This document shows, one piece after another, positions 1,767 to 63,912 of a stretch of 64,000 nucleotides of DNA. Numbering within the stretch: the stretch's first letter is position 1; every line of letters starts with the position of its first letter. This DNA is from Myxococcales bacterium (lineage in GTDB: Bacteria > Myxococcota_A > Polyangia > Haliangiales > Haliangiaceae), in NCBI GenBank assembly GCA_016707895.1, contig JADJGV010000034.1, positions 565,625 through 629,624 on the forward strand. The letters run 5' to 3'. The notes under the pieces are model-generated. The model did not search any database. It had not been told where the DNA came from and saw nothing but the letters and a program-made list of their open reading frames with translations. The translations under genes and the position numbers were made by a program.

Positions 1767-2036
1767 ATGGCCACGGTCGCGTTCACGCCCAACCTGCAGC
1801 GCCACGTGCCGAGCCCGACGGTCACCGCCGCCGGCGCCACGGTGCGCGAGGTGCTCGAGCGGGTGTTCGCCGACAACCCGCGGCTGCGCGGCTACGTCGT
1901 CGACGAGCAGGGCGCGCTGCGCAAGCACATGGCGGTGTTCGTCGACGGCCAGCAGCTGGTCGATCGCGCCGCGCAGAGCGACGCCGTCGGGCCGGGCTCC
2001 GAGATCTACGTCATGCAAGCGCTGTCTGGAGGATGA
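1767..2036 (+). CDS. MoaD/ThiS-family ubiquitin-like sulfur-carrier-type protein (89 aa, C-terminal GG)
   Basis: Internal ATG at 1767. It has the beta-grasp-like pattern and ends ...YVMQALSGG-stop, the diagnostic Gly-Gly terminus. Its stop overlaps the start of the next gene. Confidence 0.7.
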   Translation: MATVAFTPNLQRHVPSPTVTAAGATVREVLERVFADNPRLRGYVVDEQGALRKHMAVFVDGQQLVDRAAQSDAVGPGSEIYVMQALSGG

Positions 2037-3148
2037 GATCCATGCCCACCGATGCTCCGCTCCTGGTGTCGACCCGCAAGGGGCTGTTCGAGGTCCGCGG
2101 CCACGGCGCCGCGGCCCGGATCGCCCGCGCCCACTTCGTCGGCGACAACGTCACGCTGGCGATCGTCGACCGCCGCGACGGCGCCTGGTACGTCGTGCTC
2201 GATCACGGCCACTTCGGCGTCAAGCTGCACCGCTCCGACGACGGCGGCGCCACGTTCACCGAGGTCGCGGTGCCGGCGTACCCGGCCAAGCCCGAGGGCT
2301 TCGTCGACAAGGACATGTGGGGCAAGGACCGCGAGTGGGCGCTCAAGGGCATCTGGGCGCTGGCCCCGGCGCTCGACGCGCCCGGCGCGCTGTGGGCCGG
2401 CACGCTGCCCGGCGGGCTGTTCCGCTCCGACGATCGCGGCGCGACCTGGACGCTGTGCGAGGCCCTGTGGCAGCACCCGACCCGCGTCAAGTGGAACGGC
2501 GGCGGCGCCGATCACGCGGCGATCCACTCGATCTGCGTCGACCCGCGCGATCCGCGCTGCGTCGTCGTCGCGGTGTCGAGCGGCGGCGTCTGGCGCACCC
2601 GCGACGCCGGCGCCAGCTGGGAGCCGCACACCAAGGGGATGAAGGCCGGCTACGTGCCGCCCGAGCAGGCCGACTGGCCCGAGCACCAGGACCCGCACTG
2701 CGTCGTCCAGAGCCCGAGCGACCCGACGGTGTTCTGGTGCCAGCACCACATGGGCATCTGGCGCTCGACCGACGATCTCGCGAGCTGGACCCAGATCGTC
2801 GTCGAGCCGACCAGCTTCGGCTTCCCGGTCGCGGTCCACCCGCGCGAGCCGGCGACCGCGTGGTTCGTGCCGGCCCACTCCGACCAGAAGCGGACGCTGA
2901 TCGACGGCAAGGTCGTGGTCAACCGCACCCGCGACGGCGGCCAGACGTTCACCGCGCTGCGCGCCGGGCTGCCGCAGGAGCACGCCTACGATCTGGTGTT
3001 CCGCCACGCGCTCGACGTCGCCGCCGACGGCGAACAGCTGGCGTTCGGCTCGAGCACCGGCAACCTGTGGGTCACCGACGATCAGGGCGATCGCTGGCAC
3101 CAGGTCGCCGGCCACCTGCCGCCGATCTACGCGGTCCGCTACGGCTGA
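2033..3148 (+). CDS. BNR/Asp-box repeat beta-propeller protein (sialidase/Ycf48-like fold)
   Basis: Six SxDxGxTW-type Asp boxes (SDDGGATF, SDDRGATW, TRDAGASW, STDDLASW, TRDGGQTF, TDDQGDRW). ATG 2033 overlaps the moaD-like stop (ATGA). Confidence 0.8.
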   Translation: MRSMPTDAPLLVSTRKGLFEVRGHGAAARIARAHFVGDNVTLAIVDRRDGAWYVVLDHGHFGVKLHRSDDGGATFTEVAVPAYPAKPEGFVDKDMWGKDREWALKGIWALAPALDAPGALWAGTLPGGLFRSDDRGATWTLCEALWQHPTRVKWNGGGADHAAIHSICVDPRDPRCVVVAVSSGGVWRTRDAGASWEPHTKGMKAGYVPPEQADWPEHQDPHCVVQSPSDPTVFWCQHHMGIWRSTDDLASWTQIVVEPTSFGFPVAVHPREPATAWFVPAHSDQKRTLIDGKVVVNRTRDGGQTFTALRAGLPQEHAYDLVFRHALDVAADGEQLAFGSSTGNLWVTDDQGDRWHQVAGHLPPIYAVRYG

Positions 3149-3927
3149 GGCGCGGGCGCGCGCGGCAGCGTCACCACGAACGTGGTGCCGACCTCGTCGC
3201 ACCGGAACCCGAGCTGGCCGTGGTGCAGGTCGACGACGATCGCGTGGGCCAGCGCCAGCCCGAGGCCGCTGCCGTGGCCGATCGACTTGGTCGTGACGTA
3301 GGGCTCGAACACCCGGGCGCGGATCGCCGGGGGGATGCCGCCGCCGGTGTCGGCGATCTCGACCGTGACCGCGGTCGCCGACGCGGCCGCGCGGACGTCG
3401 ATCCGGCCGTGCCCGTGGTGCGCGGCGATCGCGTCGCTGGCGTTGGTCAGCAGGTTGACGAAGACGCGCTCGAGCTCGGCCGGGTAGCCCGCCGCGGCCG
3501 GCAGCGTCGGCGGGATCGCGACCGCGACGTCGGCGCGGCCGGCGAGCCGCGGGCCGGCCCAGGTGATCGCGCGCGCGACCAGCGGCGCCAGCGCGACCGG
3601 CTCGGGCGGCGGCCGGCTGGGATGGGCGGCGCTGCGGACGGTGCGGATCACCTCGGCGATGTGGCTCACCCCGGCGACGCACGCGGCGATCGCCGGCGGC
3701 GCCTCGTCCAGGTAGTAGTCGAGGTCGACCTCGGCGAGCACCGCGTCGATCGCGCGCTGCGCGTCGGGCGGCAGCGCTGCGTGGTGCTGGCGGTACGCGG
3801 CGATCACGGCGGCCATCCGGGTCACCGCCTCGCGCGCGAAGTCGAGGCCGTCGCCGACGAACTGGATCGGGGTCGCCACCTCGTGGGCGAGGCTGGCGGC
3901 GAGCTGGCCGATCAGCGGCGCGGCCAT
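3139..3927 (-). CDS. sensor histidine kinase, soluble (HisKA + HATPase_c only)
   Basis: H-box LAHEVATPIQ, then N, G1 and G2 boxes (NLLTNASDA, DTGGGIP, GSGLGLA). The start ATG at 3927 overlaps the stop of the upstream RR gene. Confidence 0.8.
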   Translation of the reverse strand: MAAPLIGQLAASLAHEVATPIQFVGDGLDFAREAVTRMAAVIAAYRQHHAALPPDAQRAIDAVLAEVDLDYYLDEAPPAIAACVAGVSHIAEVIRTVRSAAHPSRPPPEPVALAPLVARAITWAGPRLAGRADVAVAIPPTLPAAAGYPAELERVFVNLLTNASDAIAAHHGHGRIDVRAAASATAVTVEIADTGGGIPPAIRARVFEPYVTTKSIGHGSGLGLALAHAIVVDLHHGQLGFRCDEVGTTFVVTLPRAPAPQP

Positions 3928-5114
3928 CAGCCCGCCTCGTCGCGCAGCCGCTCGGCGAGCGCGAGCCACCCCGGGAGGTCGCCGGCGTGGCCGCACCGGG
4001 CGACGAAGGCTTGATCGATCGGCGGCGGCGCGCCGGGCGGCGCGTGGACGACGACGCCGGCGACGTGGACCGCCAGCGCCAGCGCGGTGTCGTCGTGGCC
4101 GATCCGGCCCGGCTGGCGGTGGCAGCCGACCGCTTCGACCAGCGCGTCGGGCAGGCCCCACACGCCGAGCGCGTAGGCGGCCACGTGGTCGGGGTCGATC
4201 GCCCCGTCGACGGCGCCGGCGTCCAGCAGGATCAGCGTGCCCAGCTCGAGCATCAGGCCGGCGGTGAACGCGGCGTCGGCCAGCGGCGGCGGGGCCAGCC
4301 GTCGCGCCACCATCGCGGCCACCAGCGAGCGGCGCTCGACCTCCTCGAGCGCGCGCCGCGACACGTGGGCGCGGGTGCGCGCGTACAGGTGCACCGCGAG
4401 CGCCAGGCCGCGCACGATCTCGGTGCCGAGGTAGGGCAGGGCGGTGGTCACGTCCTGGGTCGGTCGCCCGACCGCGAAGAAGGCCGAGTTGGCGAGTTGC
4501 AGCACGCGCGCCGACAGCCCGGCGTCGCGCTCGACGATCGCGGTCAGCTCGGCGAGGCTGGTGCGCGCCTGGCCCAGCAGCCGGGCCAGCTCCCAGTAGG
4601 TGCGCGGCACCGACAGCAGGTGGCGCACCTGGCCGACCACCTCGCGCACCCGCGGATCATCGACCATCGCCCGGGTGGTCTGGACCCGGGCCAGCGTGGT
4701 GCGCAGGCGCTCGGTCTCGCACGGCTTGGCCAGGAACTGGTGCGCCACCAGCAGCTCGTCGTCGTAGGTGCCGCTGCCGCCGTTGCCGCTCAAGAGCACC
4801 CGGGTCATCGCCGGGTACGCCTCGCGCACCCGCCCCAGGAGCGTCAGGCCGTCCATCCCCGGCATCCGCAGGTCCGAGACGATCGCGTCGAACGGGGTCT
4901 CGGCCATCACCGCGAGCGCCTCGTCGCCGCCGCCGGCGAACGCCATCGTCCAGTGGTCGGCGTGCCGGCGCAGGCTCCGGCGCAAGCCGTCGAGGATCCG
5001 CGGCTCGTCGTCGACGAAGAGGATGCGCAAGCGGTCCACGTGGTCTGGTTCGGCCGATCGCCGGGCCGCTTGAGGCCCGCGCCGATCGCGGGCCGCGCCC
5101 GGTCCGTGGCACAC
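3927..5114 (-). CDS. response regulator, receiver + HDOD domain
   Basis: Receiver motifs (ILFVDDEP...DAIVSDLRMPGMDG...LSG) followed by an HDOD-like C-terminal domain. The start is GTG at 5114 or GTG at 5039. Confidence 0.8.
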   Translation of the reverse strand: MCHGPGAARDRRGPQAARRSAEPDHVDRLRILFVDDEPRILDGLRRSLRRHADHWTMAFAGGGDEALAVMAETPFDAIVSDLRMPGMDGLTLLGRVREAYPAMTRVLLSGNGGSGTYDDELLVAHQFLAKPCETERLRTTLARVQTTRAMVDDPRVREVVGQVRHLLSVPRTYWELARLLGQARTSLAELTAIVERDAGLSARVLQLANSAFFAVGRPTQDVTTALPYLGTEIVRGLALAVHLYARTRAHVSRRALEEVERRSLVAAMVARRLAPPPLADAAFTAGLMLELGTLILLDAGAVDGAIDPDHVAAYALGVWGLPDALVEAVGCHRQPGRIGHDDTALALAVHVAGVVVHAPPGAPPPIDQAFVARCGHAGDLPGWLALAERLRDEAG

Positions 5115-5122
5115 TGGTCGCG

Positions 5123-5476
5123 ATGATCCGCCTCGCGTCGCTCCTCACCGTCCTCACCCTGACCGCCTGCGGGGGCAAGGCCGCGGCTCCCGCGACGCCC
5201 GCGCCCGCCGGCGGCCCCACCGGCACGCTCAAGGAGCTGCAGAACGGCGACCGCGCCTGCTACGTGGTGGTCGAGGTCGACGGCGCCGACCAGTCGATCG
5301 AGGGCGACTTCGAGCTGTGCCCGGGCGCCAGCCAGGACGCCAGCGGCCTCATCGGCCAGCGCGTGACCTGGACCACCAAGAAGGCCAACGTCCAGGCGGC
5401 GTCGTGCCAGGGCGACCCCGACTGCGCCGACTCTGACGAAGTCGATCTGATCGTCACGATCACCGCCGCGCCGTAG
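5123..5476 (+). CDS. lipoprotein
   Basis: Signal peptide with an LTAC lipobox, and a compact Cys-containing domain. Confidence 0.55.
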   Translation: MIRLASLLTVLTLTACGGKAAAPATPAPAGGPTGTLKELQNGDRACYVVVEVDGADQSIEGDFELCPGASQDASGLIGQRVTWTTKKANVQAASCQGDPDCADSDEVDLIVTITAAP

Positions 5477-7667: not shown

Positions 7668-10600
7668 GTGGCCCAGACCGACTTCGTCAGCCGCGGCCAG
7701 GAGCTGGTCTCTGCCGGCCAGTACCAGGAGGCGGTGAAGGTCTGCCGTCTGGGCCTCCTGGCTCGGCCGGGCGAGGTCAACGGTCGGCTGGTGCTGGCCT
7801 CGGCGCTGTTGGCGCTGCGGCGCTACGACGAGGTGCTCGCCGAGATGCGGGTCGCGATCGAGCTCGAGCCGGGTAACGCCGGCGCGCACCAGCTGCGCGG
7901 CGAGGCGCTGTTGCGCAAGGGCGACCCCCACGGCGCGGTCGACACGCTGACCCGGGCCAAGAAGCTGGCCGGCAGCGATCCGGCGATCGCCGGGCTGCTC
8001 GAGGAGGCCAAGCTGGCCCAGGCGGCGGCCGGGCCACCGGCCTTCGCCGACGGCGACAGCATGACCAAGCACTACCCCAGCCACCGCGGCGGCGACGCCG
8101 CCGGCAGCGGGCGCTCGGGCAGCTTCACCAAGCCGATCGACCGCCGGCGCGCGCCGGCCGACGATCGCACGCCGACGCCCGACACGCTGCGGGTCGGCGA
8201 CAAGTCGGGGACGGTCGAGCTCGATCCCGAGCTCGAGGGGGTCGAGCTCGAGGACGACGAGCTGGCCGATCCGCCCAGCTCGGTGTCGACGGTCGAGGTC
8301 AGCGACGACGATCTCGAGGAGATCGACGACGACGACGAGCGCGCGCCGGAGGCGCAGACCCGCGCCGGTCGCCCCGGCCGCACGCCGACGCCGGCCGCCC
8401 GCGTCGACCCCGGCCCCGCGGCGCGCCCGGGCGAGCGCCCGGCGGACCGCAGCTGGCGCGCCGACGAGAACTCGGAGAGCGCGACCAAGAAGCACGCGCT
8501 GCCGGTGCCGCCGCGCGACGAGGACGCCGCGCCGACGGTGCCGCGGCCGCTGATCGACGACGACCGCCCGCCGCGCGCGCCGGTCGATCGGGCCCGGGCC
8601 CCGGCGCGCCCGTCGCCCGAGATGTTCGAGGAGGAGTCGAGCCTGCAGGGGCGCGCCTCGCACCCCCGCCTCGCCGAGCTGCCGGCGGGGCCGCTGGGCG
8701 GGTTGACGCCGGCGCCGGTGATGACGCCGTCGGGGCGGTTCCTGTCGACGCCGTCGGGGCCGGGCGCCGTCGTCGGTGGCGGCGCCGCGCCCGCGCACGC
8801 GCCGACGGTGGCCGGGGCGATGCCGTCGCCCGCCGGCACGCCGCCGGGGATGGCGCCGCCGAGCGGCCGCCTGGTGCCGGCCGCGGCGCCGCAGGCCAAG
8901 ACCATGGTGCCGGCGACGATGGCCGCGGTGCGCCCGACGGTGGCGATGAGCGCCGCCGAGGCGCCGTCGACTAGCGGCCCGCCCGGCGCCGACATGGATC
9001 TGATCCGCGCCGGCCTCGGCCCCGACTACGGCGCCACGCCGCTGCCGCCGCCGATGGCGACCGTCGCGCCCGGCCCGGGGCCGTCGCCGCGCACCAGCCG
9101 CATGTCGCTGCGCTCGCCGCTGATGATCGCGGTGTGGGTGACGATCACGCTGGCGATCATCGGCGGCGGCGTGTTCGCCGGCTTCAAGATCCGCGAGGTC
9201 CGGCTGGCCAAGCAGATCTCGTCGGCGCGCAAGGCCGCCGCCGAGGTGGCCCGGACCGACACCTGGGCCGGCTGGCGCAACGCGCGCGATCGGCTGGCGG
9301 CGATCAGCCGGGCCCGCGCGTCGGGCGGCAACCGCGCCGCGCTGGCCAAGGCCCGGGCGATCCTGGCGGCGCGCTACGACGACGATCTCGAGGGCGCGCG
9401 CGCCGCGGTCGCCGACGTGGCCAAGGAAGCCAGCGAGGACGCCGCGCTCGCCCGCGCGTACCTGGCGATCGCCGACGGCGACGGCGCCGCCGCGACCGCC
9501 GCGATCACCGCCGCCGGGGGCGCCGACGCCGACGCCGAGCTGGCGCTGGCCGCGGCCTACGCCGCCGCGCTCGAGGCGCGCTGGGACGCCGCGGCGTCGA
9601 CGGCGCGGCGCGCCACCGAGCAGGACCCGCGGCCCGCGGCGTTCGCGCTCCTGTGCGCGGTCGAGACCGCGCGCCAGCGCTTCCCCGACGCCGAGCGCGC
9701 GTGCGCCGAGGCCGAGCGGCTGGTGCCCGGGCACCCGGCCGCGATCATCGCCCGGGCCCGCCAGCGCGCGGCCAGCGGCGCGGCGCGCGCCGAGGCCGAC
9801 AAGCTGCGCGTCGAGCTCGAGGGCCTCAACGCCGAGGCGGCGCGGCCGGTGGCCGATCAGCGGCTGGGCGTGTCGCCGGGGCAGGCGGCGTGGGCGCAGC
9901 TGGCGCTGGCCGAGGTCGGGCTCGCCGCCGGCGAGCCGCAGAAGGCCCGGGTCGCGATCGAGCGGCTCAAGGGCGGCCAGCGCAGCTCGCGCGGCCTGCT
10001 CGAGGCCCAGGCCGCGCTCGGCCTCGCCCTGGGCGACGTCGGCGAGGCCGGCCGGCTGGCCGAGCAGGGCCTCGAGCGCTGGCCGACCAGCCCGATCTTC
10101 ACCGCGGTCCGGGCCCGGGCGCTGCTGTCGACCGGCGACCTCGAGGGCGCCGCCGCGGTGATCGGCAAGCTGGCCGCGGCCGACGACTCGATCGAGCTGA
10201 CCATCCTGCGCGGCGAGATCGCGATCGCCAAGCACGACCTGCCGGCCGCGACCAAGCTGCTCGACGCCGCGCTGGCCAAGCGCCCCGACGATCTCGACGC
10301 GCTGCTGGCGCGGGCCGCGGTCGATCTCGAGAACAACGATCCCCACGCCGCCCAGACCCGGCTCGAGGCGCGCTACTCCAAGCAGGCGCCGCCGCGGCTG
10401 ACCATCGCGTACGCGTCGGCGCTGCGGCTGCAGAAGCAGTGGCAAGACGCCCGGGTCGCGCTCGGGCGGATCACCACCGACGGCGCGCCCGGGCCGATCA
10501 CCGGGCGGGCCTGGCTCGAGCGGGCCCGGGTCGAGCGCGACGCCGGCAACGCCAAGGACGCCCGCGACGCCTACGGCCGGGCCCAGGAGATGTTGCCCAG

Positions 10601-16357: not shown

Positions 16358-17566
<1,209 letters not shown>

Positions 17567-17617
17567 CCGGGTCCGATTCTTACATGCCTTCCGCCGACGG
17601 CAACAGGGGTTGTGGCT

Positions 17618-17636
17618 CTTGACGCGCCGGGTCAAG
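17618..17636. promoter_or_regulatory. palindrome CTTGAC-N7-GTCAAG in the clpX / response-regulator divergent intergenic region
   Basis: Perfect 6-bp arms. Each arm resembles a -35 TTGAC element. Confidence 0.35.
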
Positions 17637-17655
17637 CAGGTGATCACTTGCTCCC

Positions 17656-18351
17656 GTGCGTGCGCTGGTGATCTGCGCCGAGCCGGCGACGAGTCGCGAC
17701 GACCGGGCTTCATTGGCGGCCGCGTTGGCCGATCTCGGCAGCCCGGTGACGTTGGCGAGGTTCGATCTGGGCGATCTCGACACCGCCGCGCTCGCGGCCG
17801 CGCCACCGACGGTGATCGTGATCGATGCTGGCGACGAGCTGGCGCGGGCGCTGCGCACGGTGAAGAAGGTTCGGAGCGGCGGCGCCCTGGCCGAGGTGCC
17901 GATCCTGGTGGCGCTGCCGGTGGCCCGGCTGCCCGGGCTGGACGTCTCGGCGGGCTTCGACGACTTCGTGCTCACCCCGCTCGTCCCCGCCGAACTGTAC
18001 GCGCGGGTACGCCAGCTCGACTGGCGGGCCGCCGCCTTCGACTCCGACGAGCTGGTGAAGATCGACGACCTGGTGATCGACCTGGCCGGCCACGAGGCCC
18101 GGCTGGCCGGGCGCGGGCTCGGCCTGACCCACCAGGAGTTCGAGCTGCTGGCCTACCTGGCCCAGCACCGCGGGCGGGCGTTCACGCGCGATCAGCTCCT
18201 CGAGACGGTCTGGGGCTACACGTACACCGGGGGCACGCGCACCGTCGACATCCATGTGCGCCGGCTGCGCGCCAAGCTCGGCCCCAGCGCCGGCGACCTG
18301 ATCGAGACGGTCCGCAACCTCGGCTACAAGATGCGGTCCCGCGGCCGCTGA
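17656..18351 (+). CDS. OmpR-family winged-helix response regulator with degenerate receiver
   Basis: C-terminal trans_reg_C (LT.QEFELL..LA...GR.F.R..LL..VWG). The N-terminal receiver lacks the acidic pocket (LVICAEPA). Confidence 0.8.
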
Positions 18352-36917: not shown

Positions 36918-37054
36918 CAAGCCGTCGCCGGGGGTAGACATCATCCGATGGCTTGGGTAGAGTCGTGACGAGTTGGGCTAATGCCAACTTCGGGCCAGCG
37001 TGAAGGGCGGCCCGTGCCTCATTCCAACGTTACGGAATTAAAGGAGGATCGCCG

Positions 37055-38574
37055 ATGGGCATGGAGATGCGCCAAGAGCTGCGACTGAGTCAGCAGCTCG
37101 TCATGACGCCTCAGCTCCAGCAGGCGATCAAGCTGCTTCAGCTGTCCCGCATGGAGCTCGTGGACATGGTCCACGAGGAGATGCTCGAGAACCCGATCCT
37201 CGAAGACGACTTCGAGGTCTCAGCCGAGCAGGGCAAGGAGCGAGAGCTCCTGGGCGGCGACGACCAGCTCGCGATGCAGATGGAGCGAGCCGGCAACACC
37301 GAGCTACCCCCGCTCGAGCAGACGCCGGTCGAGAACGCCAACCAGGTCGAGGTCAAGGCCGACGGCACCGCGGTCAACGAGATCGACTGGGAGAACTACC
37401 TCGACAACTACTCGAGCGCCTCGCCGATGCCGTCGTACCGCGGCGACAGCGAGGACCTGCCGTCGCTCGAGGCCACGCTCACCCGGCCGCCGTCGCTCCA
37501 CGACCACCTGGCCTGGCAGCTCAAGCTGTCGGACCTCGAGGATCGCGAGAAGGAGCTGGGGCTCATCATCATCGGCAACATCGACGCCGATGGCTACTTC
37601 AAGGAGCCGACGGTCAGCGAGCTGGCCGCCGACGAGGGTGTCAGCGAGGAGCTGGTCGAGAAGGTGCTGGAGAAGATCCAGACCTTCGATCCGGTCGGCA
37701 TCGGCGCGCGCAACCTCGCCGAGTGCATGCTGATCCAGGCCATCGCGTGCGGCCAGGACGACGACCTCGTCGTCAAGATGATCAAGAGCCACCTCAACAA
37801 CCTGGTGAAGAAGAACTACGCGGCGATCGTGCGCGATCTGAAGAAGCCGCCGCCGGCGCCGCAGATGGACATCGAGGAGATCTACGAGGCGGCCAAGGTC
37901 ATCATGGAGTTCGACCCGCGCCCGGGTCGGCAGTACGCCTCCGACGATCCGCACTACATCACCCCCGACGTCTACATCCACAAGGTCGGCGACAAGTTCT
38001 TCGTCGTGCCCAACGACGACGGCCTGCCCAAGCTGAAGATCGCCAACTTCTACAAGGCGGCGATGGGCTCGGGGGAGAAGTCCAAGGAGTACGTCCAGGA
38101 CAAGATGCGGTCGGCGCAGTGGCTGATCCGCTCGATCCAGCAGCGCCAGCGCACGATCATCAAGGTCGCCGAGTCGATCCTGAAGTTCCAGCGCGAGTTC
38201 TTCGACAAGGGCATCGCCCACCTGAAGCCGCTGATCCTGCGCTCGACATCGCCGAGGACATCGGCATGCACGAGTCGACGGTGTCGCGCGTGACGACCAA
38301 CAAGTACGTCCACACGCCGCAGGGCATCTACGAGCTGAAGTTCTTCTTCAACTCGGGCATCTCGTCGTCGTCGGGCGACGACCTCGCCTCGCAGGCGGTC
38401 AAGTCCAAGATCAAGGAGCTGGTCGACGCCGAGGACGCCAAGCGCCCGCACAGCGACCAGAAGATCGTCGAGCTGCTCAAGAAGGGCGGCATCAACATCG
38501 CCCGCCGCACCGTCGCCAAGTACCGCGAGCAGATGGGCATCCTGTCGTCGAGCCAGCGCAAGCAGGTGTTCTGA
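37055..38574 (+). CDS. rpoN: RNA polymerase sigma-54 factor RpoN, interrupted by an apparent frameshift near 38240
   Basis: AAGGAGG RBS 7 nt upstream of ATG 37055. Glutamine-rich region I, core-binding region, and the RpoN box ARRTVAKYRE. The HTH/RpoN-box part (DIAEDIGMHESTVSRV...) lies in a different frame (track ORFs 37055..38293 and 37723..38574). Confidence 0.85.
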
Positions 38575-38640
38575 CAGCCGCCCGCCATTCGCCGTCGCTG
38601 GTGTGCGAGGCCGTCGGGATGCCGCCGGTCCGGTCGCGGG

Positions 38641-39519
38641 TCAGAAGCCGGAGAAGGCGCGGAGGCGGGCGGCGTCGGGGGTGGTGCGGCCGGCGGCGTC
38701 GCGCAGCACGAGCTCGTCGGTGGCGAGCGGCGCGGCGGCGTGGGCCAGGGTCCAGACGGCGAACAGCGGCGGCTTGGGGGCGTGGGCCACGATCGCGGTG
38801 CGGGCGACGACGTGCAGGCCGACCTCGGCGGCGGCGGCCTGCAGCCGGCCCTCGGTGCGCGCGTCGCCGCACAAGACCAGCGCGCCGCCGGGCGCCAGCG
38901 CCGCCGCGCCGGCCACGACGTAGGCGTCGATGCCGCCGCGGTACTCGATGCGCGCGTAGGCCCGCTGCTCGTCCTGGGCGTCGACCGCGGCGTCCGGGGG
39001 GAAGTACGGCGGCGTGCCGGTGACCAGATCGAACAGGCCGACCCGCAGCTCGCGCAGATCGCCGTGGTGGATCGCGACCCGCGCGCCGAGCTGGTTGCGC
39101 CGGACGTTCTCGGTCAGGAGCGCGAACGACACCGCCTGGGCCTCGATGCCGACCAGCGTCGCCGCCGGCAGGCTCCACGCCAGGTGCAGCAGCACCGAGC
39201 CGATGCCGCAGCCGAGGTCGAGGATCCGCCGCGCGTCGGGCGCGCGCCGGCACGCCACGTACGCGGTGGCCATGTCGTCGCTCGAGAACCGGTGGCCGCG
39301 GGCGCGCTGGACGATCGTCAGGTCGCGGGTGAGCCGGTCCTCGGTCAGCGGGCCCCAGCGCGGGTCGAGCATGCGCGCGTGTACCAGATCGCGGCGCGCC
39401 GTGGCGCGGCCGGCGGCGAGATCGTAGCTCCGGCGCGCGCGTGAGGGAAGGGCGGCGGGAGGCAACCGTCGGGCGGCGCGCGTGGCGTCGAAGAGTCGAC
39501 GAAGAACGTGTTGTCGCAC
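38641..39519 (-). CDS. N6-adenine-type methyltransferase, YfiC/TrmN6-like
   Basis: Rossmann motif ILDLGCGIG and an NPPY-like TPPYF motif. The start may be the internal ATG 39372. Confidence 0.75.
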   Translation of the reverse strand: MRQHVLRRLFDATRAARRLPPAALPSRARRSYDLAAGRATARRDLVHARMLDPRWGPLTEDRLTRDLTIVQRARGHRFSSDDMATAYVACRRAPDARRILDLGCGIGSVLLHLAWSLPAATLVGIEAQAVSFALLTENVRRNQLGARVAIHHGDLRELRVGLFDLVTGTPPYFPPDAAVDAQDEQRAYARIEYRGGIDAYVVAGAAALAPGGALVLCGDARTEGRLQAAAAEVGLHVVARTAIVAHAPKPPLFAVWTLAHAAAPLATDELVLRDAAGRTTPDAARLRAFSGF

Positions 39520-39576
39520 TTCCGCGATGCTGTCGCAGCGTTACACTTGTCGTGTAACAACGGCTTCGGAGGCCAA

Positions 39577-40158
<582 letters not shown>

Positions 40159-40262
40159 CGGGATCGGTAGGCCCGCCGGGGAGGGCCCCCGGCGCCCGAT
40201 CACGGGGGTAGCGGACCGTTGGGGTTGCTGGGTGACCGTGATAGGGTGGCCGCCACCGAGCC

Positions 40263-40723
40263 ATGAAGATCGTCGATCTGATCGGGCGCGACATGATCGT
40301 GCCGGCGCTGGCCGGGACGGACAAGCGGTCCATTCTCGAAGAGCTGGCCGCCCACGTCGCGCGCCAGCACCCCCGCATCGATCGCGCCACCCTCACCCGT
40401 GTGCTGGTCGATCGCGAGGCCCTGGCCTCGACGGCGATCGGCGAGGGCGTCGCGATCCCCCACGGCAAGCTCAGCGCGGTGACGGAGATCGTCGCCTGCC
40501 TGGGCCGGGCGCGCGCCGGCGTCGACTTCGACGCGATGGACAAGCAGTCCACCTACCTGTTCTTCGTCCTGGTGGCGCCCGAGTCGTCGACCGGCGCCCA
40601 CCTGAAGGCCCTGGCCCGGATCAGCCGCGTGTTCAAGGACGGCAGCTTCCGCAAGCGTCTGCTCGAGGCGCCCGACGCCGACGGCATGTTCGCGGTGATC
40701 GCCGAGGAAGACGCCAAGTACTG

Positions 40724-40724
<1 letters not shown>
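40263..40724 (+). CDS. ptsN: PTS IIA-Ntr nitrogen regulatory protein PtsN
   Basis: EIIA-fructose/Ntr family (active-site His in IPHGK). Confidence 0.85.
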
Positions 40725-41692
<968 letters not shown>

Positions 41693-41695
41693 GCC

Positions 41696-42536
41696 ATGCA
41701 GATCGTCGTCGTCACCGGGCTGTCGGGGGCGGGCAAGTCCAGCGCGCTGCGCGCGGCTCGAGGACATCGAGTATTACTGCGTCGACAACCTGCCGCTGCC
41801 GTTCATGACCGAGCTGGTCGAGGCGCTGGCCCGCGACGGCCAGGCCGACAAGCTGGCGGTGGCGATCGACTCGCGGCAGCGCCGCTACCTGCCGACGTGG
41901 GGCGCCGAGCTGGCCAAGCTGCGCGGCGCCGGCCACCGCCTCGAGGTGATGTTCCTCGACGCCAAGGACGACGTGCTCTTGCGCCGGTTCTCCGAGACCC
42001 GGCGCCGCCACCCGCTGTCGGGCGACGAGGTGTCCGAGGGCATCCGCCGCGATCGCGAGCTGCTCGCCGAGCTGCGGATCGGCGCCGCGGTGGTCGACAC
42101 GTCGAACCTGACGACCCACCAGTTCAAGGCGATCATCCAGGACCGCTACGGCGGCACCGGCAAGCTGGCGGTGACGCTGGTGTCGTTCGGGTGGAAGCAC
42201 GGCGCGCCGGTCGAGTTCAACCTGGTGTTCGACGTCCGGTTCCTGCCCAACCCGTACTTCGAGCCGACCTTGACCCACAAGGACGGCCGCGACCCCGACG
42301 TCGCGCGGTTCGTGTGCGCCTCGGCCGACGGCCTCGAGCTGGTCGAGCGGGTCGAGAGCCTGCTGCGGTTCTCGCTGCCGCAGTTCCAGCAAGAGGGCAA
42401 GCTGTACGTGACCGTGGCGGTGGGCTGCACGGGTGGCCGGCATCGCTCGGTCGCCATCGTCGAAGAGCTGCGCCGGCGGCTCGGCGGCGACTGGGACATC
42501 CTGGTCCGGCATCGCGACGTTGATCGAGGGGAGTGA
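41696..42536 (+). CDS. rapZ: RNase adaptor / nucleotide-binding protein RapZ, with an apparent +1 frameshift near 41752
   Basis: N-terminal MQIVVVTGLSGAGKSSALRA (Walker A) in one frame. The continuation LEDIEYYCVDNLPLPF... runs to the C-terminus in the next frame (ORFs 41696.. and 41805..42536). Confidence 0.8.
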
Positions 42537-42817
42537 CGATGTCCGAGATTGCACAGCAGGCGATCGTGATCAGCAACGAGCTGGGGCTGCACGCGCGCGC
42601 CGCCACCAAGTTCGTGCAGCTGGCGGGCAAGTACCCGTGCGACGTCGTCGTCGGCAAGGACGGCCACGACGTCAACGGCAAGAGCATCATGGGCGTGCTC
42701 ATGCTGGTGGCGTCGAAGGGGACGACGATCGTGATCAGCGCCAAGGGGCCGCAGGCCGCCGACGCGGTCGCGGCGCTGGTCAAGCTGGTCCAGGACAAGT
42801 TCGGCGAGGAGCGCTAG
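42533..42817 (+). CDS. ptsH: phosphocarrier protein HPr
   Basis: HPr fold (LGLHARAAT). The start is GTG 42533 or ATG 42539. Confidence 0.85.
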   Translation: MTMSEIAQQAIVISNELGLHARAATKFVQLAGKYPCDVVVGKDGHDVNGKSIMGVLMLVASKGTTIVISAKGPQAADAVAALVKLVQDKFGEER

Positions 42818-42820
42818 CCG

Positions 42821-44626
42821 GTGTCCGAGCGCGACCGCGAGCACGCCGGCGAGCGCCCCACCGGCGAGATCCGCCGGGACGGCGTCGCGGTCTCGGCCGG
42901 CATCGCGATCGGGCGCGCGTTCCTGGTCGGCCGCGATCTGATCAAGGAGCCGCGCTATCACGTCGAGGCCGACGACGTCGACAGCGAGGTCGCGCGCCTG
43001 CGCAAGGCGATCGCGTCGTCCGACAAGCAGCTGGCCAAGATCAAGAGCAAGCTGGCCGAGGAGGAGGCGTCGAGCGACTTCCACATCATCACCGCCCACC
43101 AGCTGATGCTCCACGACGAGCACCTGGTCGACGCGACGATCGGGTACATCAAGGACGAGCTGATCAACGCCGAGTGGGCGCTGACCAAGGCGGTCGGCGA
43201 CATCCGCGGCGTGTTCGACGCGATCGAGGACGACTACTTCCGCGAGCGCCGCAGCGACGTCGACTTCGTCGGCGAGCGCGTGCTGCGCAACCTGCTGGGC
43301 AAGGAGACCGGGCCGCTCAAGCCGCCGCCCGACGCGATCGTCGTCGCCTACGACCTGTCGCCGGCCGACACCGCGCAGCTGCACAAGCACGCGGTGGCGG
43401 GCCTGATCACCGACGCCGGCGGCAAGACCTCGCACACCGCGATCATCGCCCGCGCCCACGAGCTGCCGGCGGTGGTCGGCCTCGAGGACATCACCGAGCT
43501 GGTGCTCGACGACGACCTGCTGATCGTCGACGGCGGCGCCGGCGTGGTGATCGTCAACCCGACGCCGACGACGGTCGGGCAGTACCGCGATCAGCAGCGC
43601 AAGCAGGTGGCGCTCGAGGAGCAGCTGCTCGGCAACAAGGACCTGCCGGCCACGACCAAGGATGGCGTGGCGGTGCAGCTCTACGCCAACATCGACGGCC
43701 CCGACGAGATCGACGGCGCGCTCGAGCACGGCGCGGTCGGCATCGGCCTGTACCGCACCGAGTACCTGTTCATGGTGGGCGACCACGTCCCCGACGAGGA
43801 GACCCACTACAAGACCGCGGTCGAGGTGCTCGAGCGGATGGCCGGCCGGCCGGTGACGATGCGCACCTTCGATCTGGGCGCCGACAAGCTGGCCAAGTTC
43901 CTCGAGGAGGCCGCCCTCGACGAGGCCAACCCGGCGCTGGGGCTGCGCTCGATCCGGCTGTGCCTGGCCGACCTGGGGCAGGGGCTGTTCCGCACCCAGC
44001 TGCGCGGCCTGTTGCGCGCCAGCGCCCACGGGCCGCTGCGGATCATGTTCCCGATGATCTCGGGGGTCGCCGAGCTGCGCGCGGCGATGGCGGTGCTCGA
44101 CGACGTCAAGCGCGAGCTGCGGGCGTCGAAGGTGCCCTTCGACGAGCACATCAAGATCGGCATCATGATCGAGATGCCGGCGGCGGCGGTGATCGCCGAC
44201 CTGCTGGCCAAGGAGACCGCGTTCTTCTCGATCGGCACCAACGACCTCATCCAGTACACGATGGCGGTCGATCGCGTGAACGAGCTGGTGTCGTACCTGT
44301 ACGAGCCGCTGCACCCGGCGCTGTTGCGGCTGGTGCGCGACACGGCGATCGCCGCCCACGCGGCGGGGATCCCGGTCAGCCTGTGCGGCGAGATGGCGGC
44401 CGACCCGCTGGTGGCGCCGGTGCTGCTCGGCCTGGGGATCACCGAGCTGTCGATGAGCGCGGTGTCGATCCCCGAGGTCAAGGGGCTGGTGCGCGCGAGC
44501 ACGATGAGCGAGCTGCAGGCGCTGGTGGCGCGGGTGGTGTCGCTGCCGACGGCGGAGGAGATCCGGGCGGCGGTGACGGCGTACATGGCCAGCGTGACGG
44601 CGGCGGCGGCCGCGGCGGGGAAGTAG
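42821..44626 (+). CDS. ptsI: phosphoenolpyruvate-protein phosphotransferase (PTS enzyme I)
   Basis: Full EI similarity (phospho-His region GGKTSHTAI, PEP-utilising domain). Confidence 0.9.
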   Translation: MSERDREHAGERPTGEIRRDGVAVSAGIAIGRAFLVGRDLIKEPRYHVEADDVDSEVARLRKAIASSDKQLAKIKSKLAEEEASSDFHIITAHQLMLHDEHLVDATIGYIKDELINAEWALTKAVGDIRGVFDAIEDDYFRERRSDVDFVGERVLRNLLGKETGPLKPPPDAIVVAYDLSPADTAQLHKHAVAGLITDAGGKTSHTAIIARAHELPAVVGLEDITELVLDDDLLIVDGGAGVVIVNPTPTTVGQYRDQQRKQVALEEQLLGNKDLPATTKDGVAVQLYANIDGPDEIDGALEHGAVGIGLYRTEYLFMVGDHVPDEETHYKTAVEVLERMAGRPVTMRTFDLGADKLAKFLEEAALDEANPALGLRSIRLCLADLGQGLFRTQLRGLLRASAHGPLRIMFPMISGVAELRAAMAVLDDVKRELRASKVPFDEHIKIGIMIEMPAAAVIADLLAKETAFFSIGTNDLIQYTMAVDRVNELVSYLYEPLHPALLRLVRDTAIAAHAAGIPVSLCGEMAADPLVAPVLLGLGITELSMSAVSIPEVKGLVRASTMSELQALVARVVSLPTAEEIRAAVTAYMASVTAAAAAAGK

Positions 44627-62965: not shown

Positions 62966-63877
62966 TCACAGCGACGGCAGGCCCTTCTTGACGATCTCTT
63001 GCTCGTAGTACTTCGCCGGCTTGGTGCCGGCCTTGACCGCGGCCTTGGCCTTGGCCAGCTCCTCGTCGATCAGCGCGGCGAACGCCGGGAACGGCTGGGC
63101 GCCCGAGAGGAACCGACCGTTGATGAAGAACACCGGGGTGGCGCCGACGCCGAACTTGGTGAGCTCGGCCATGTCCTTGGCGTTCTCGGCCAGGCACCCG
63201 GTCAGGTCGGCGCGGTAGCGGGGCATGTCCAGGCCGACGCGGCTGGCGAGCGCGTCGATCTGCGCCGGCTCGAACGCGCGCTTGGCGAACGCCTCGTCCC
63301 ACAGCAGCGTGTCGAGGTCCCAGAACTTGCCCTGGTGGTTCGCGGCGCACGCCGCCTGCGACGCGTAGGTCGCGACCTGCGGGTGGACGACGTACTGGCG
63401 GTAGACGATGCGCACCTGATCGCCGTAGGTGGTGCTGATCTGGTCGAGCGTGCCGCGCACCTTCTCGCAGAACGGGCACGCGTACTCGCCGGCGCGGACG
63501 ATCGTGACCAGCGCGGTGGCCTTGCCCTTGACCGGGAAGCCGACGACCGGCACGCCATAGGTCTTGGTGGCGTCGGGCTGCGGCCGCGCCGGGCGCGCCG
63601 GCGGCGCGGCCTTGGCCTTGGCGTCGACCTCGGCCGCCAGCTTCTCGAGCTGCACGCGCAGCTCCTCGGCCTTGGCGGCGGCGTCGCTGGCGCCGTCGAC
63701 CGAGCCGGCCAGCGTGCCGAGCATCGCCTCGAGCCGGGCCAGGGACGCCCGCAGCTCGAACTCGCTCTTGGCCTGGGCCGCCTCGGCGGCGGCCATCCGG
63801 CGCTCGAGCCGGTCGAACCTGCCGCTGCTCACACACCCGGCGATCGAGAGGACGACGACGAACCATGCCGCGCGCAT
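62966..63877 (-). CDS. DsbA-family thiol:disulfide oxidoreductase lipoprotein
   Basis: IAGC lipobox, a coiled-coil linker, and a thioredoxin fold with CPFC. Confidence 0.85.
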   Translation of the reverse strand: MRAAWFVVVLSIAGCVSSGRFDRLERRMAAAEAAQAKSEFELRASLARLEAMLGTLAGSVDGASDAAAKAEELRVQLEKLAAEVDAKAKAAPPARPARPQPDATKTYGVPVVGFPVKGKATALVTIVRAGEYACPFCEKVRGTLDQISTTYGDQVRIVYRQYVVHPQVATYASQAACAANHQGKFWDLDTLLWDEAFAKRAFEPAQIDALASRVGLDMPRYRADLTGCLAENAKDMAELTKFGVGATPVFFINGRFLSGAQPFPAFAALIDEELAKAKAAVKAGTKPAKYYEQEIVKKGLPSL

Positions 63878-63912
63878 GGCGCGACGCTACCACGGCGATC
63901 GCGGCGGCGCCG

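Follow-up and report, generated by a model that had tools for sequence, protein, structure and literature searches.

Small sulfur carriers of the ThiS/MoaD type are the prokaryotic roots of ubiquitin signalling, and every characterised member that we know of works with either a defined sulfur-insertion enzyme or a conjugation machinery. In MoaD-MoaE, the Gly-Gly (GG) tail of MoaD inserts into the larger subunit, MoaE, and the activating enzyme (E1) of MoaD, MoeB, is often unlinked. In CysO-CysM of M. tuberculosis and CysO-BexX of A. orientalis, a carrier of ~90 amino acids (aa) with a GG terminus is encoded beside the enzyme that uses it, either a pyridoxal phosphate enzyme (CysM) or a ThiG-like TIM barrel (BexX). 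Here we describe two adjacent genes in a 64,000-nucleotide (nt) stretch of a Myxococcales bacterium genome (GCA_016707895.1, contig JADJGV010000034.1, positions 565,625 to 629,624; hereafter the window), the first encoding a small ThiS/MoaD-class ubiquitin-like protein (Ubl) and the second a propeller with BNR/Asp-box repeats. As in the known pairs, a small beta-grasp carrier stands 1:1 with a larger protein encoded next to it, but the partner is a seven-bladed Asp-box propeller, a fold unrelated to that of MoaE and different from those of CysM and BexX. The pair appears to join a carrier of this class to an unprecedented and exclusive partner, and appears itself to be uncharacterised. Two main surveys of the beta-grasp fold (PMC1779556, PMC1949818) mention no propeller, BNR or sialidase partner, and we found no open-access text in which MoaD or ThiS is connected to BNR or sialidase genes (an earlier mention elsewhere is possible), nor any functional study in the open-access literature of the Pseudomonas aeruginosa pair, PA1355/PA1356.

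The small open reading frame (ORF) is truly coding. Its translation, MATVAFTPNLQRHV...EIYVMQALSGG*, has 89 aa; the GC content of its three codon positions (0.76, 0.46 and 0.94) follows the pattern of real genes in this 74% GC DNA, and synonymous-only codon changes are abundant in comparisons with orthologues, with 11 synonymous and 4 non-synonymous changes against one related locus (L001). The protein matches the Pfam ThiS family (PF02597) at 25.8 bits, above the cutoff of 22.5, over residues 19-89. An AlphaFold2 (AF2) model based on 18 homologues has the strand and helix order of a beta-grasp, with a predicted local distance difference test score (pLDDT) of 92.2 and a predicted template modelling score (pTM) of 0.84. 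Searching the PDB with Foldseek returned M. tuberculosis CysO (3dwg_C) and A. orientalis CysO (4n6e_B) as the closest folds, with template modelling (TM) scores of 0.81-0.82, and SAMP1 (3po0, TM 0.77) as the second-best match. These were followed by a T. thermophilus MoaD-related protein and then by Urm1, MoaD (1fm0_D, TM 0.70), ThiS and TtuB; nearly all of the 30 best matches were sulfur carriers or related Ubls, the top TM scores being about 0.7-0.8. The initial annotation, made from the sequence without database searches, had called the protein beta-grasp-like with an ALSGG end. Translation, the above-cutoff ThiS match, the confident beta-grasp model and the Foldseek results all bear this out, and the ORF is conserved.

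The small protein is thus a ThiS/MoaD-class Ubl with a conserved terminal Gly-Gly, the exact GG terminus being present in 63 of 69 loci and 87 of 120 close homologues. Within this class it forms a new, well-separated subfamily in the CysO/SAMP1/MoaD branch, to which no named carrier is orthologous. The best NCBIfam match, the SAMP1 equivalog model (NF041918), scored 42.4 bits, under its cutoff of 60, and archaeal-type MoaD (moaD_arch, TIGR01687) scored 18.3 bits against a cutoff of 49.5. The proteins here differ from SAMP1 further in their bacterial hosts, in lacking a UbaA/JAMM context and in their strict pairing with a propeller, and from MoaD in having no MoaE. Identity to CysO is only about 20-24%, and here the whole QALSGG tail is invariant. 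CysO-type cysteine synthesis is marked by linked CysM and Mec+ (JAMM), both of which were absent from the scanned window ORFs and from 110 flanking ORFs of related loci. Members of the family are numerous. Word-indexed searching gave 2081 homologue clusters at 90% identity; when 1.84 billion representatives were searched with a profile, 1680 clusters at 50% identity matched with E<=1e-3, 552 of them with E<=1e-10.

The partner is, on its predicted structure, a seven-bladed propeller. Its AF2 model (pLDDT 85.5, pTM 0.87) has 28 strands, corresponding to seven four-stranded blades. A profile of 20 homologues gave one strong match to a solved structure, 3b7f (Reut_B4987; E=1.5e-66, residues 3-363), a structural-genomics entry from Ralstonia eutropha JMP134 named 'glycosyl hydrolase, BNR repeat', which is a full-length homologue with the same fold; in Foldseek the model aligns with it at TM 0.86, with a root-mean-square deviation of 3.2 and 35% identity. 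A survey of Asp-box propellers lists 3b7f as seven-bladed and its function as 'Not known' (PMC2716378). The initial annotation had correctly recognised a BNR/Asp-box propeller but had given it six blades, a count probably explained by its six Asp-boxes, which lie in the C-to-D loops of blades 2-7.

Pfam matches of the propeller were limited to generic BNR, Sortilin-Vps10 and Gmad1 models, and the sialidase domain was not matched. The next structural matches (TM 0.3-0.65) were single propellers of glycoside hydrolase family 74 (GH74) enzymes, the protease-binding protein DAIP, Ycf48 and sortilin. GH74 xyloglucanases have two tandem seven-bladed propellers in ~700 aa, whereas here there is a single propeller of 368 aa with a target-normalised TM of ~0.33. 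Ycf48/HCF136 and the Vps10 domain of sortilin have the Asp-box propeller fold in common with it, and 5ojp and 3f6k show that such propellers can hold a peptide, but they are distant (TM 0.3-0.55; 17.6 bits to the Ycf48 model NF010237, whose cutoff is 326) and extracytoplasmic or lumenal, and sortilin has ten blades. The propeller described here is cytoplasmic. We found no signal peptide in it, and the N-terminus of its P. aeruginosa orthologue (PA14_46750/PA1356), when tested experimentally, contained no twin-arginine translocation (Tat) signal (PMC6085387); Tat export was rejected on these published data.

The paired propellers constitute a distinct subfamily of 3b7f-like seven-bladed Asp-box propellers. 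By alignment, they have a core in common with 3b7f (K16, H60, R151, H165, D220, H222, Q237, H239, D284, R287 and R324) and a further set of residues that 3b7f lacks (D57, H58, K64, H66, C236, H238 and H325). Although their sequence does not vary among close homologues, two segments are modelled with low confidence: an insertion at about residues 85-105 (around 92-102 in the alignment with 3b7f, which lacks it) and the HSDQKR loop (282-287). Such low confidence is expected for loops that become ordered only on binding of a partner or ligand.

To assess how general the pairing is, we examined 76 propeller loci from a scan of one genome per species. The small gene lay immediately upstream on the same strand in 67 of them, in Myxococcota, Acidimicrobiia and other Actinomycetota, Burkholderiales, other Gammaproteobacteria, Alphaproteobacteria, Phycisphaerae and Fimbriimonadaceae, so the adjacency reaches far beyond Myxococcota. 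Most exceptions were contig ends (L066, L069, L074) or distant propellers at 24-30% identity (L072, L076), and only in two loci (L010 and L060) was an intact propeller gene not preceded by the small gene. In these two, with propellers of 80% and 51% identity, respectively, both at 9500-10060, no small gene was present upstream or anywhere in the 21-kb locus. In a Myxococcales metagenome-assembled genome (L040:5150-5300), the first ~17 codons of the small gene (MARVVFTENLKRHVECP) run into propeller residue ~91 (...VDKDMWGKDREW), a junction that is either a deletion destroying both genes or an assembly artefact. The P. aeruginosa pair is annotated as 'MoaD/ThiS family protein' and 'exo-alpha-sialidase', and the one on the R. 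solanacearum megaplasmid as 'ThiS' and 'sialidase'; further examples of the pair are found in C. metallidurans CH34, B. cenocepacia and Mitsuaria. When Myxococcota are compared with Burkholderiales, the Ubls are 46-52% identical and the propellers 50-54%, indicating that the Ubl evolves as slowly as its partner.

Upstream of propellers nearer to 3b7f, found on plasmids of Streptomyces and Rhodobacter, there is no Ubl gene and just 130-220 nt of space, indicating that the pairing defines one subfamily. One of these Ubl-less propeller genes, on a plasmid of Rhodobacter sp. CZR27 (L081:2583-6110), is divergent and stands beside the ergothioneine genes egtB-egtD, a possible link of the wider propeller family to a sulfur metabolite, from a single locus. 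Fusions of Ubl and propeller were not seen among the 120 best matches to a concatenated query, and those in the profile search of 1.84 billion representatives were only mis-called starts or read-through artefacts (P0271, P0244, P0285), which fits a need for a free Ubl C-terminus. No third conserved partner emerged, beyond closely related genomes, from all-against-all clustering of ORFs within 7 kb on either side in the 76 loci. When 110 flanking ORFs were assigned to Pfam families, 138 families appeared, with at most 6 members each; the largest (MiaA/IPPT, 6 members) came entirely from closely related Acidimicrobiia. MoaE, ThiG and ThiF were not among the conserved neighbours.

The two genes are tightly coupled, as the initial annotation proposed, and this coupling is conserved; the start codon that it assigned to the propeller gene, within an ATGA overlapping the stop of the small gene, is not supported. 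That ATGA is present in the window at 2033. Orthologous propellers, however, have 363-368 aa and align from about residue 7-10 of the query, and in loci whose Gly-Gly codons and stop read GGAGGC-TGA, the ATGA is missing and the propeller gene starts 1-9 nt beyond the stop. The most likely start is ATG 2042, which lies 5 nt after the small-gene stop and 8 nt after GGAGGA (2028-2033), and the ATGA is probably an incidental by-product of GGA followed by TGA. The penultimate glycine is encoded by GGA in 49 of 68 loci (72%), compared with 8.4% of glycine codons elsewhere in the two genes (binomial p ~1e-37, for loci that are phylogenetically non-independent), and loci with GGCGGC, GGGGGC or GGTGGC have a longer spacer that carries its own purine-rich Shine-Dalgarno (SD) sequence. 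Together, these patterns imply that the codons for Gly-Gly also act as the ribosome-binding site from which the propeller gene is translated. In the protein, GG is nevertheless kept at the terminus in all 19 loci whose codons form no SD, indicating that it is also selected as protein sequence. Where residues follow the GG, the shifted stop often overlaps the propeller ATG, as in GGAGGATCATGA. Collectively, these results firmly support a self-contained, translationally coupled two-protein module.

Conservation within the module was mapped on 62 orthologous pairs, with propeller identities down to about 48%. In the small protein, the flexible tail Q84-G89 (QALSGG) is 100% invariant against a mean column conservation of 0.69, which firmly supports the tail as a functional element. 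In the propeller, we considered polar residues conserved at 97% or more and assigned them to blades and faces from the strands of the model and the fixed position of Asp-boxes in C-to-D loops, that is, from secondary structure rather than coordinates. On this assignment, 12 of the conserved loop residues fall on one face and 2, both Asp-box aspartates, on the opposite face (Table 1). The conserved face carries three invariant arginines (R151, R287, R324); beside it lie H165 and H222, at the starts of inner strands, and Q237/H238, at the end of strand 5B. Two lysines of the propeller, K16 and K64, are conserved at >=97%. Overall, the propeller appears to have one highly conserved face.

As the initial annotation had noted for about 10 kb around the pair, no activating or processing enzyme is encoded nearby. 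A Pfam scan of 43 window ORFs of about 95 aa or more (excluding those at 3-371 and 62969-63886) found no ThiF/MoeB, JAB/JAMM, rhodanese or cysteine desulfurase. Probing 1.19 Mb of related loci with E. coli MoeB and ThiF by tblastn also gave no match, a weak negative for want of a positive control.

By analogy with MoaD-MoaE, CysO-CysM and CysO-BexX, the reading that we tentatively rank first is a carrier-plus-enzyme pair served by a housekeeping E1 encoded elsewhere. Such an E1, of the MoeB/MoeZ/ThiF type, would adenylate the terminal glycine and convert it to a thiocarboxylate; the tail would then insert into the conserved face of the propeller to form a physical complex, and the propeller would use it on a substrate, either as a sulfur donor or as a covalent handle. 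Activation in trans has a precedent in mycobacterial MoeZR, a single E1 described as serving both MoaD and CysO (PMC3227635). In favour of this reading are the above-cutoff ThiS match and the sulfur carriers as closest folds, the adjacency in 67 of 76 loci, the invariant tail, the GG kept where its codons form no SD, the lack of fusions, the equally slow evolution of the two proteins, the position of most conserved polar residues on one propeller face, the insertion missing from the Ubl-less 3b7f, and the standalone 3b7f-like relatives without space for a Ubl gene. That the propeller is a new kind of Ubl-dependent enzyme, a seven-bladed, His/Arg-rich and possibly metal-binding catalyst that would use the thiocarboxylate, or the C-terminus as covalent scaffold, to make a sulfur-containing or otherwise modified metabolite or cofactor outside any assigned pathway, is a rather unlikely extension of this idea, and in a more radical version it would act on the Ubl without any E1. 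Several observations weigh against the carrier-plus-enzyme reading. Not one of 67 loci has a gene for an E1, JAMM, rhodanese or desulfurase linked to the pair, so activation by an E1 is purely an inference, and we know of no propeller that acts as a thiocarboxylate-using enzyme. In 6 of 69 loci and 33 of 120 close homologues (27%; P0001-P0120), 1-3 extra residues follow the GG (S, SS, R, A, T, L or C in the close homologues), which would prevent adenylation if there were no unlinked peptidase to remove them. Much of the conserved propeller face is common to 3b7f-type relatives that work without a Ubl, and its enrichment in conserved residues is only a trend (odds ratio 3.9, p=0.086 with 62 orthologues; p=0.28, non-significant, in a shallow alignment). 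It is nearly as likely that the Ubl is a non-covalent, obligate subunit, a structural or regulatory partner whose tail is a peptide ligand that plugs, completes or gates a site on the conserved face, with no adenylation or sulfur chemistry. No linked activating or processing enzyme would then be expected in any locus, the extensions seen in about 10-27% of members would be tolerable, and a conserved core site common to Ubl-less relatives would be natural. Invariance of all six tail residues, beyond the GG, resembles sequence-specific peptide recognition, and structural relatives have been deposited with bound peptides (Ycf48 with D1 peptide, 5ojp; sortilin with neurotensin, 3f6k and 4po7). However, the family sits inside the ThiS/MoaD carrier class, in which GG termini are used chemically; credible members never extend more than ~3 residues past the GG and fusions are not seen, whereas pure binding would not obviously require a free C-terminus so near the GG.

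Two further explanations have less to recommend them. The Ubl could be a protein modifier like SAMP, Urm1 or TtuB, conjugated to target lysines, with the propeller as its substrate receptor, adaptor or main target. Propellers are common as substrate receptors in eukaryotic ubiquitin ligases, SAMP1 is the best NCBIfam match (42.4 bits), SAMP1 and Urm1 are among the best fold matches, and K16 and K64 would be candidate acceptors conserved at >=97%. We nonetheless consider this improbable: the SAMP1 score falls short of the 60-bit cutoff, E1, E2 and JAMM deconjugase are unlinked, in contrast to known bacterial Ubl conjugation operons, and strict 1:1 pairing with translational coupling suits a stoichiometric complex better. 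PADLOC defence models also matched neither protein at E<=0.01, and an anti-phage defence system was rejected on that ground. Very improbable, finally, is what the automatic names imply, namely that the propeller is a sialidase or another glycoside hydrolase and that the small gene is an unrelated cofactor MoaD or ThiS merely sharing its operon. PGAP and GenBank annotators do call the pair 'exo-alpha-sialidase' or 'sialidase' with 'MoaD/ThiS family' or 'ThiS', and there are weak matches to GH74 and to the F510_1955 'glycosylhydrolase' model. Yet the latter scores 58.6 against a cutoff of 175, sialidases have six blades rather than seven, Pfam returns generic BNR and Sortilin-Vps10 instead of the sialidase domain, and the propeller has no signal peptide, the PA1356 N-terminus not being a Tat signal (PMC6085387). 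As for an unrelated MoaD or ThiS, MoaE, ThiG and ThiF are not neighbours and the moaD_arch score is 18.3 against 49.5; chance does not account for a pairing kept in 67 of 76 loci across phyla when no other neighbour is conserved.

The carrier-plus-enzyme and non-covalent readings, which correspond to the sulfur carrier with a distant E1 and the propeller-binding Ubl offered by the initial annotation, lead in different directions. If the carrier is thiocarboxylated, the pair would represent a sulfur-transfer pathway of a new kind, in which the Asp-box propeller is put to a new catalytic use; were the propeller a Ubl-dependent enzyme, this would be a widespread 'fourth' sulfur-carrier pathway beside those for thiamin, molybdenum cofactor and CysO-type cysteine synthesis, operating in P. 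aeruginosa and in aerobic bacteria of soil and water. If it is not thiocarboxylated, a MoaD-like protein would have been turned into a peptide-tail ligand of a propeller. In either case, the clade is large, slowly evolving and spread across several phyla, and the propeller that is its sole constant partner has a single solved relative, from structural genomics. The presence of the pair in tractable P. aeruginosa, R. solanacearum, C. metallidurans and B. cenocepacia makes its function directly testable, and an answer would correct the widespread misannotations 'exo-alpha-sialidase' and 'thiamine biosynthesis protein ThiS'.

Table 1. Features of the Ubl-propeller locus (window coordinates) and positions of conserved polar residues in the propeller
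Feature	Position	Strand	Remarks
Small ThiS/MoaD-class Ubl gene	1767..2036	+	89 aa, ends QALSGG then TGA
GGAGGA, the two terminal Gly codons and Shine-Dalgarno of the propeller gene	2028..2033	+	
Seven-bladed (predicted) Asp-box (BNR) propeller gene	2042..3148	+	Preferred ATG 2042, 368 aa; alternative in-frame ATG 2033, 371 aa
YjbQ/UPF0047 gene	1281-1691	minus	Divergent from small gene; profile match, 132 bits
Histidine-kinase gene (HATPase_c)	3139-4161	minus	Convergent with propeller gene; Pfam
Conserved polar residues, D-to-A and B-to-C loops (one face)	K16, H60, R151, S182, Q219, D220, H239, D284, R287, R324, H325, S340		
Conserved polar residues, strands	K64, H165, H222, Q237, H238, R298, T299		
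Conserved polar residues, opposite-face loops	D134, D191		Both Asp-box aspartates

The genes that flank the pair in the window vary among loci. The YjbQ/UPF0047 gene, separated from the small gene by a 75-nt intergenic region, does lie divergently upstream, as the initial annotation reported; among related loci it neighbours the pair in L001 and L002 only, and we rejected YjbQ as a functional partner, its adjacency being incidental. A scan for promoters and terminators found nothing in this 74% GC DNA. Downstream, the histidine-kinase gene and the propeller stop codon overlap convergently by ~10 nt, and a response regulator with an HDOD domain adjoins the kinase gene (3139-5144 for both, minus strand). 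Kinase-like ORFs follow the pair in several Myxococcota loci and not in other lineages.

Farther away, the window holds a conserved rpoN-region cluster (37004-44623) encoding sigma-54, a ribosome hibernation factor (S30AE), a PtsN-like EIIA-2 component of the phosphotransferase system (PTS), RapZ, HPr and enzyme I. A ClpX-like AAA+ protein with a ClpX C4 zinc finger is encoded at 16361-17971 on the minus strand; read from stop to stop, its ORF reaches back ~140 aa from the zinc finger, and translation probably starts inside it.

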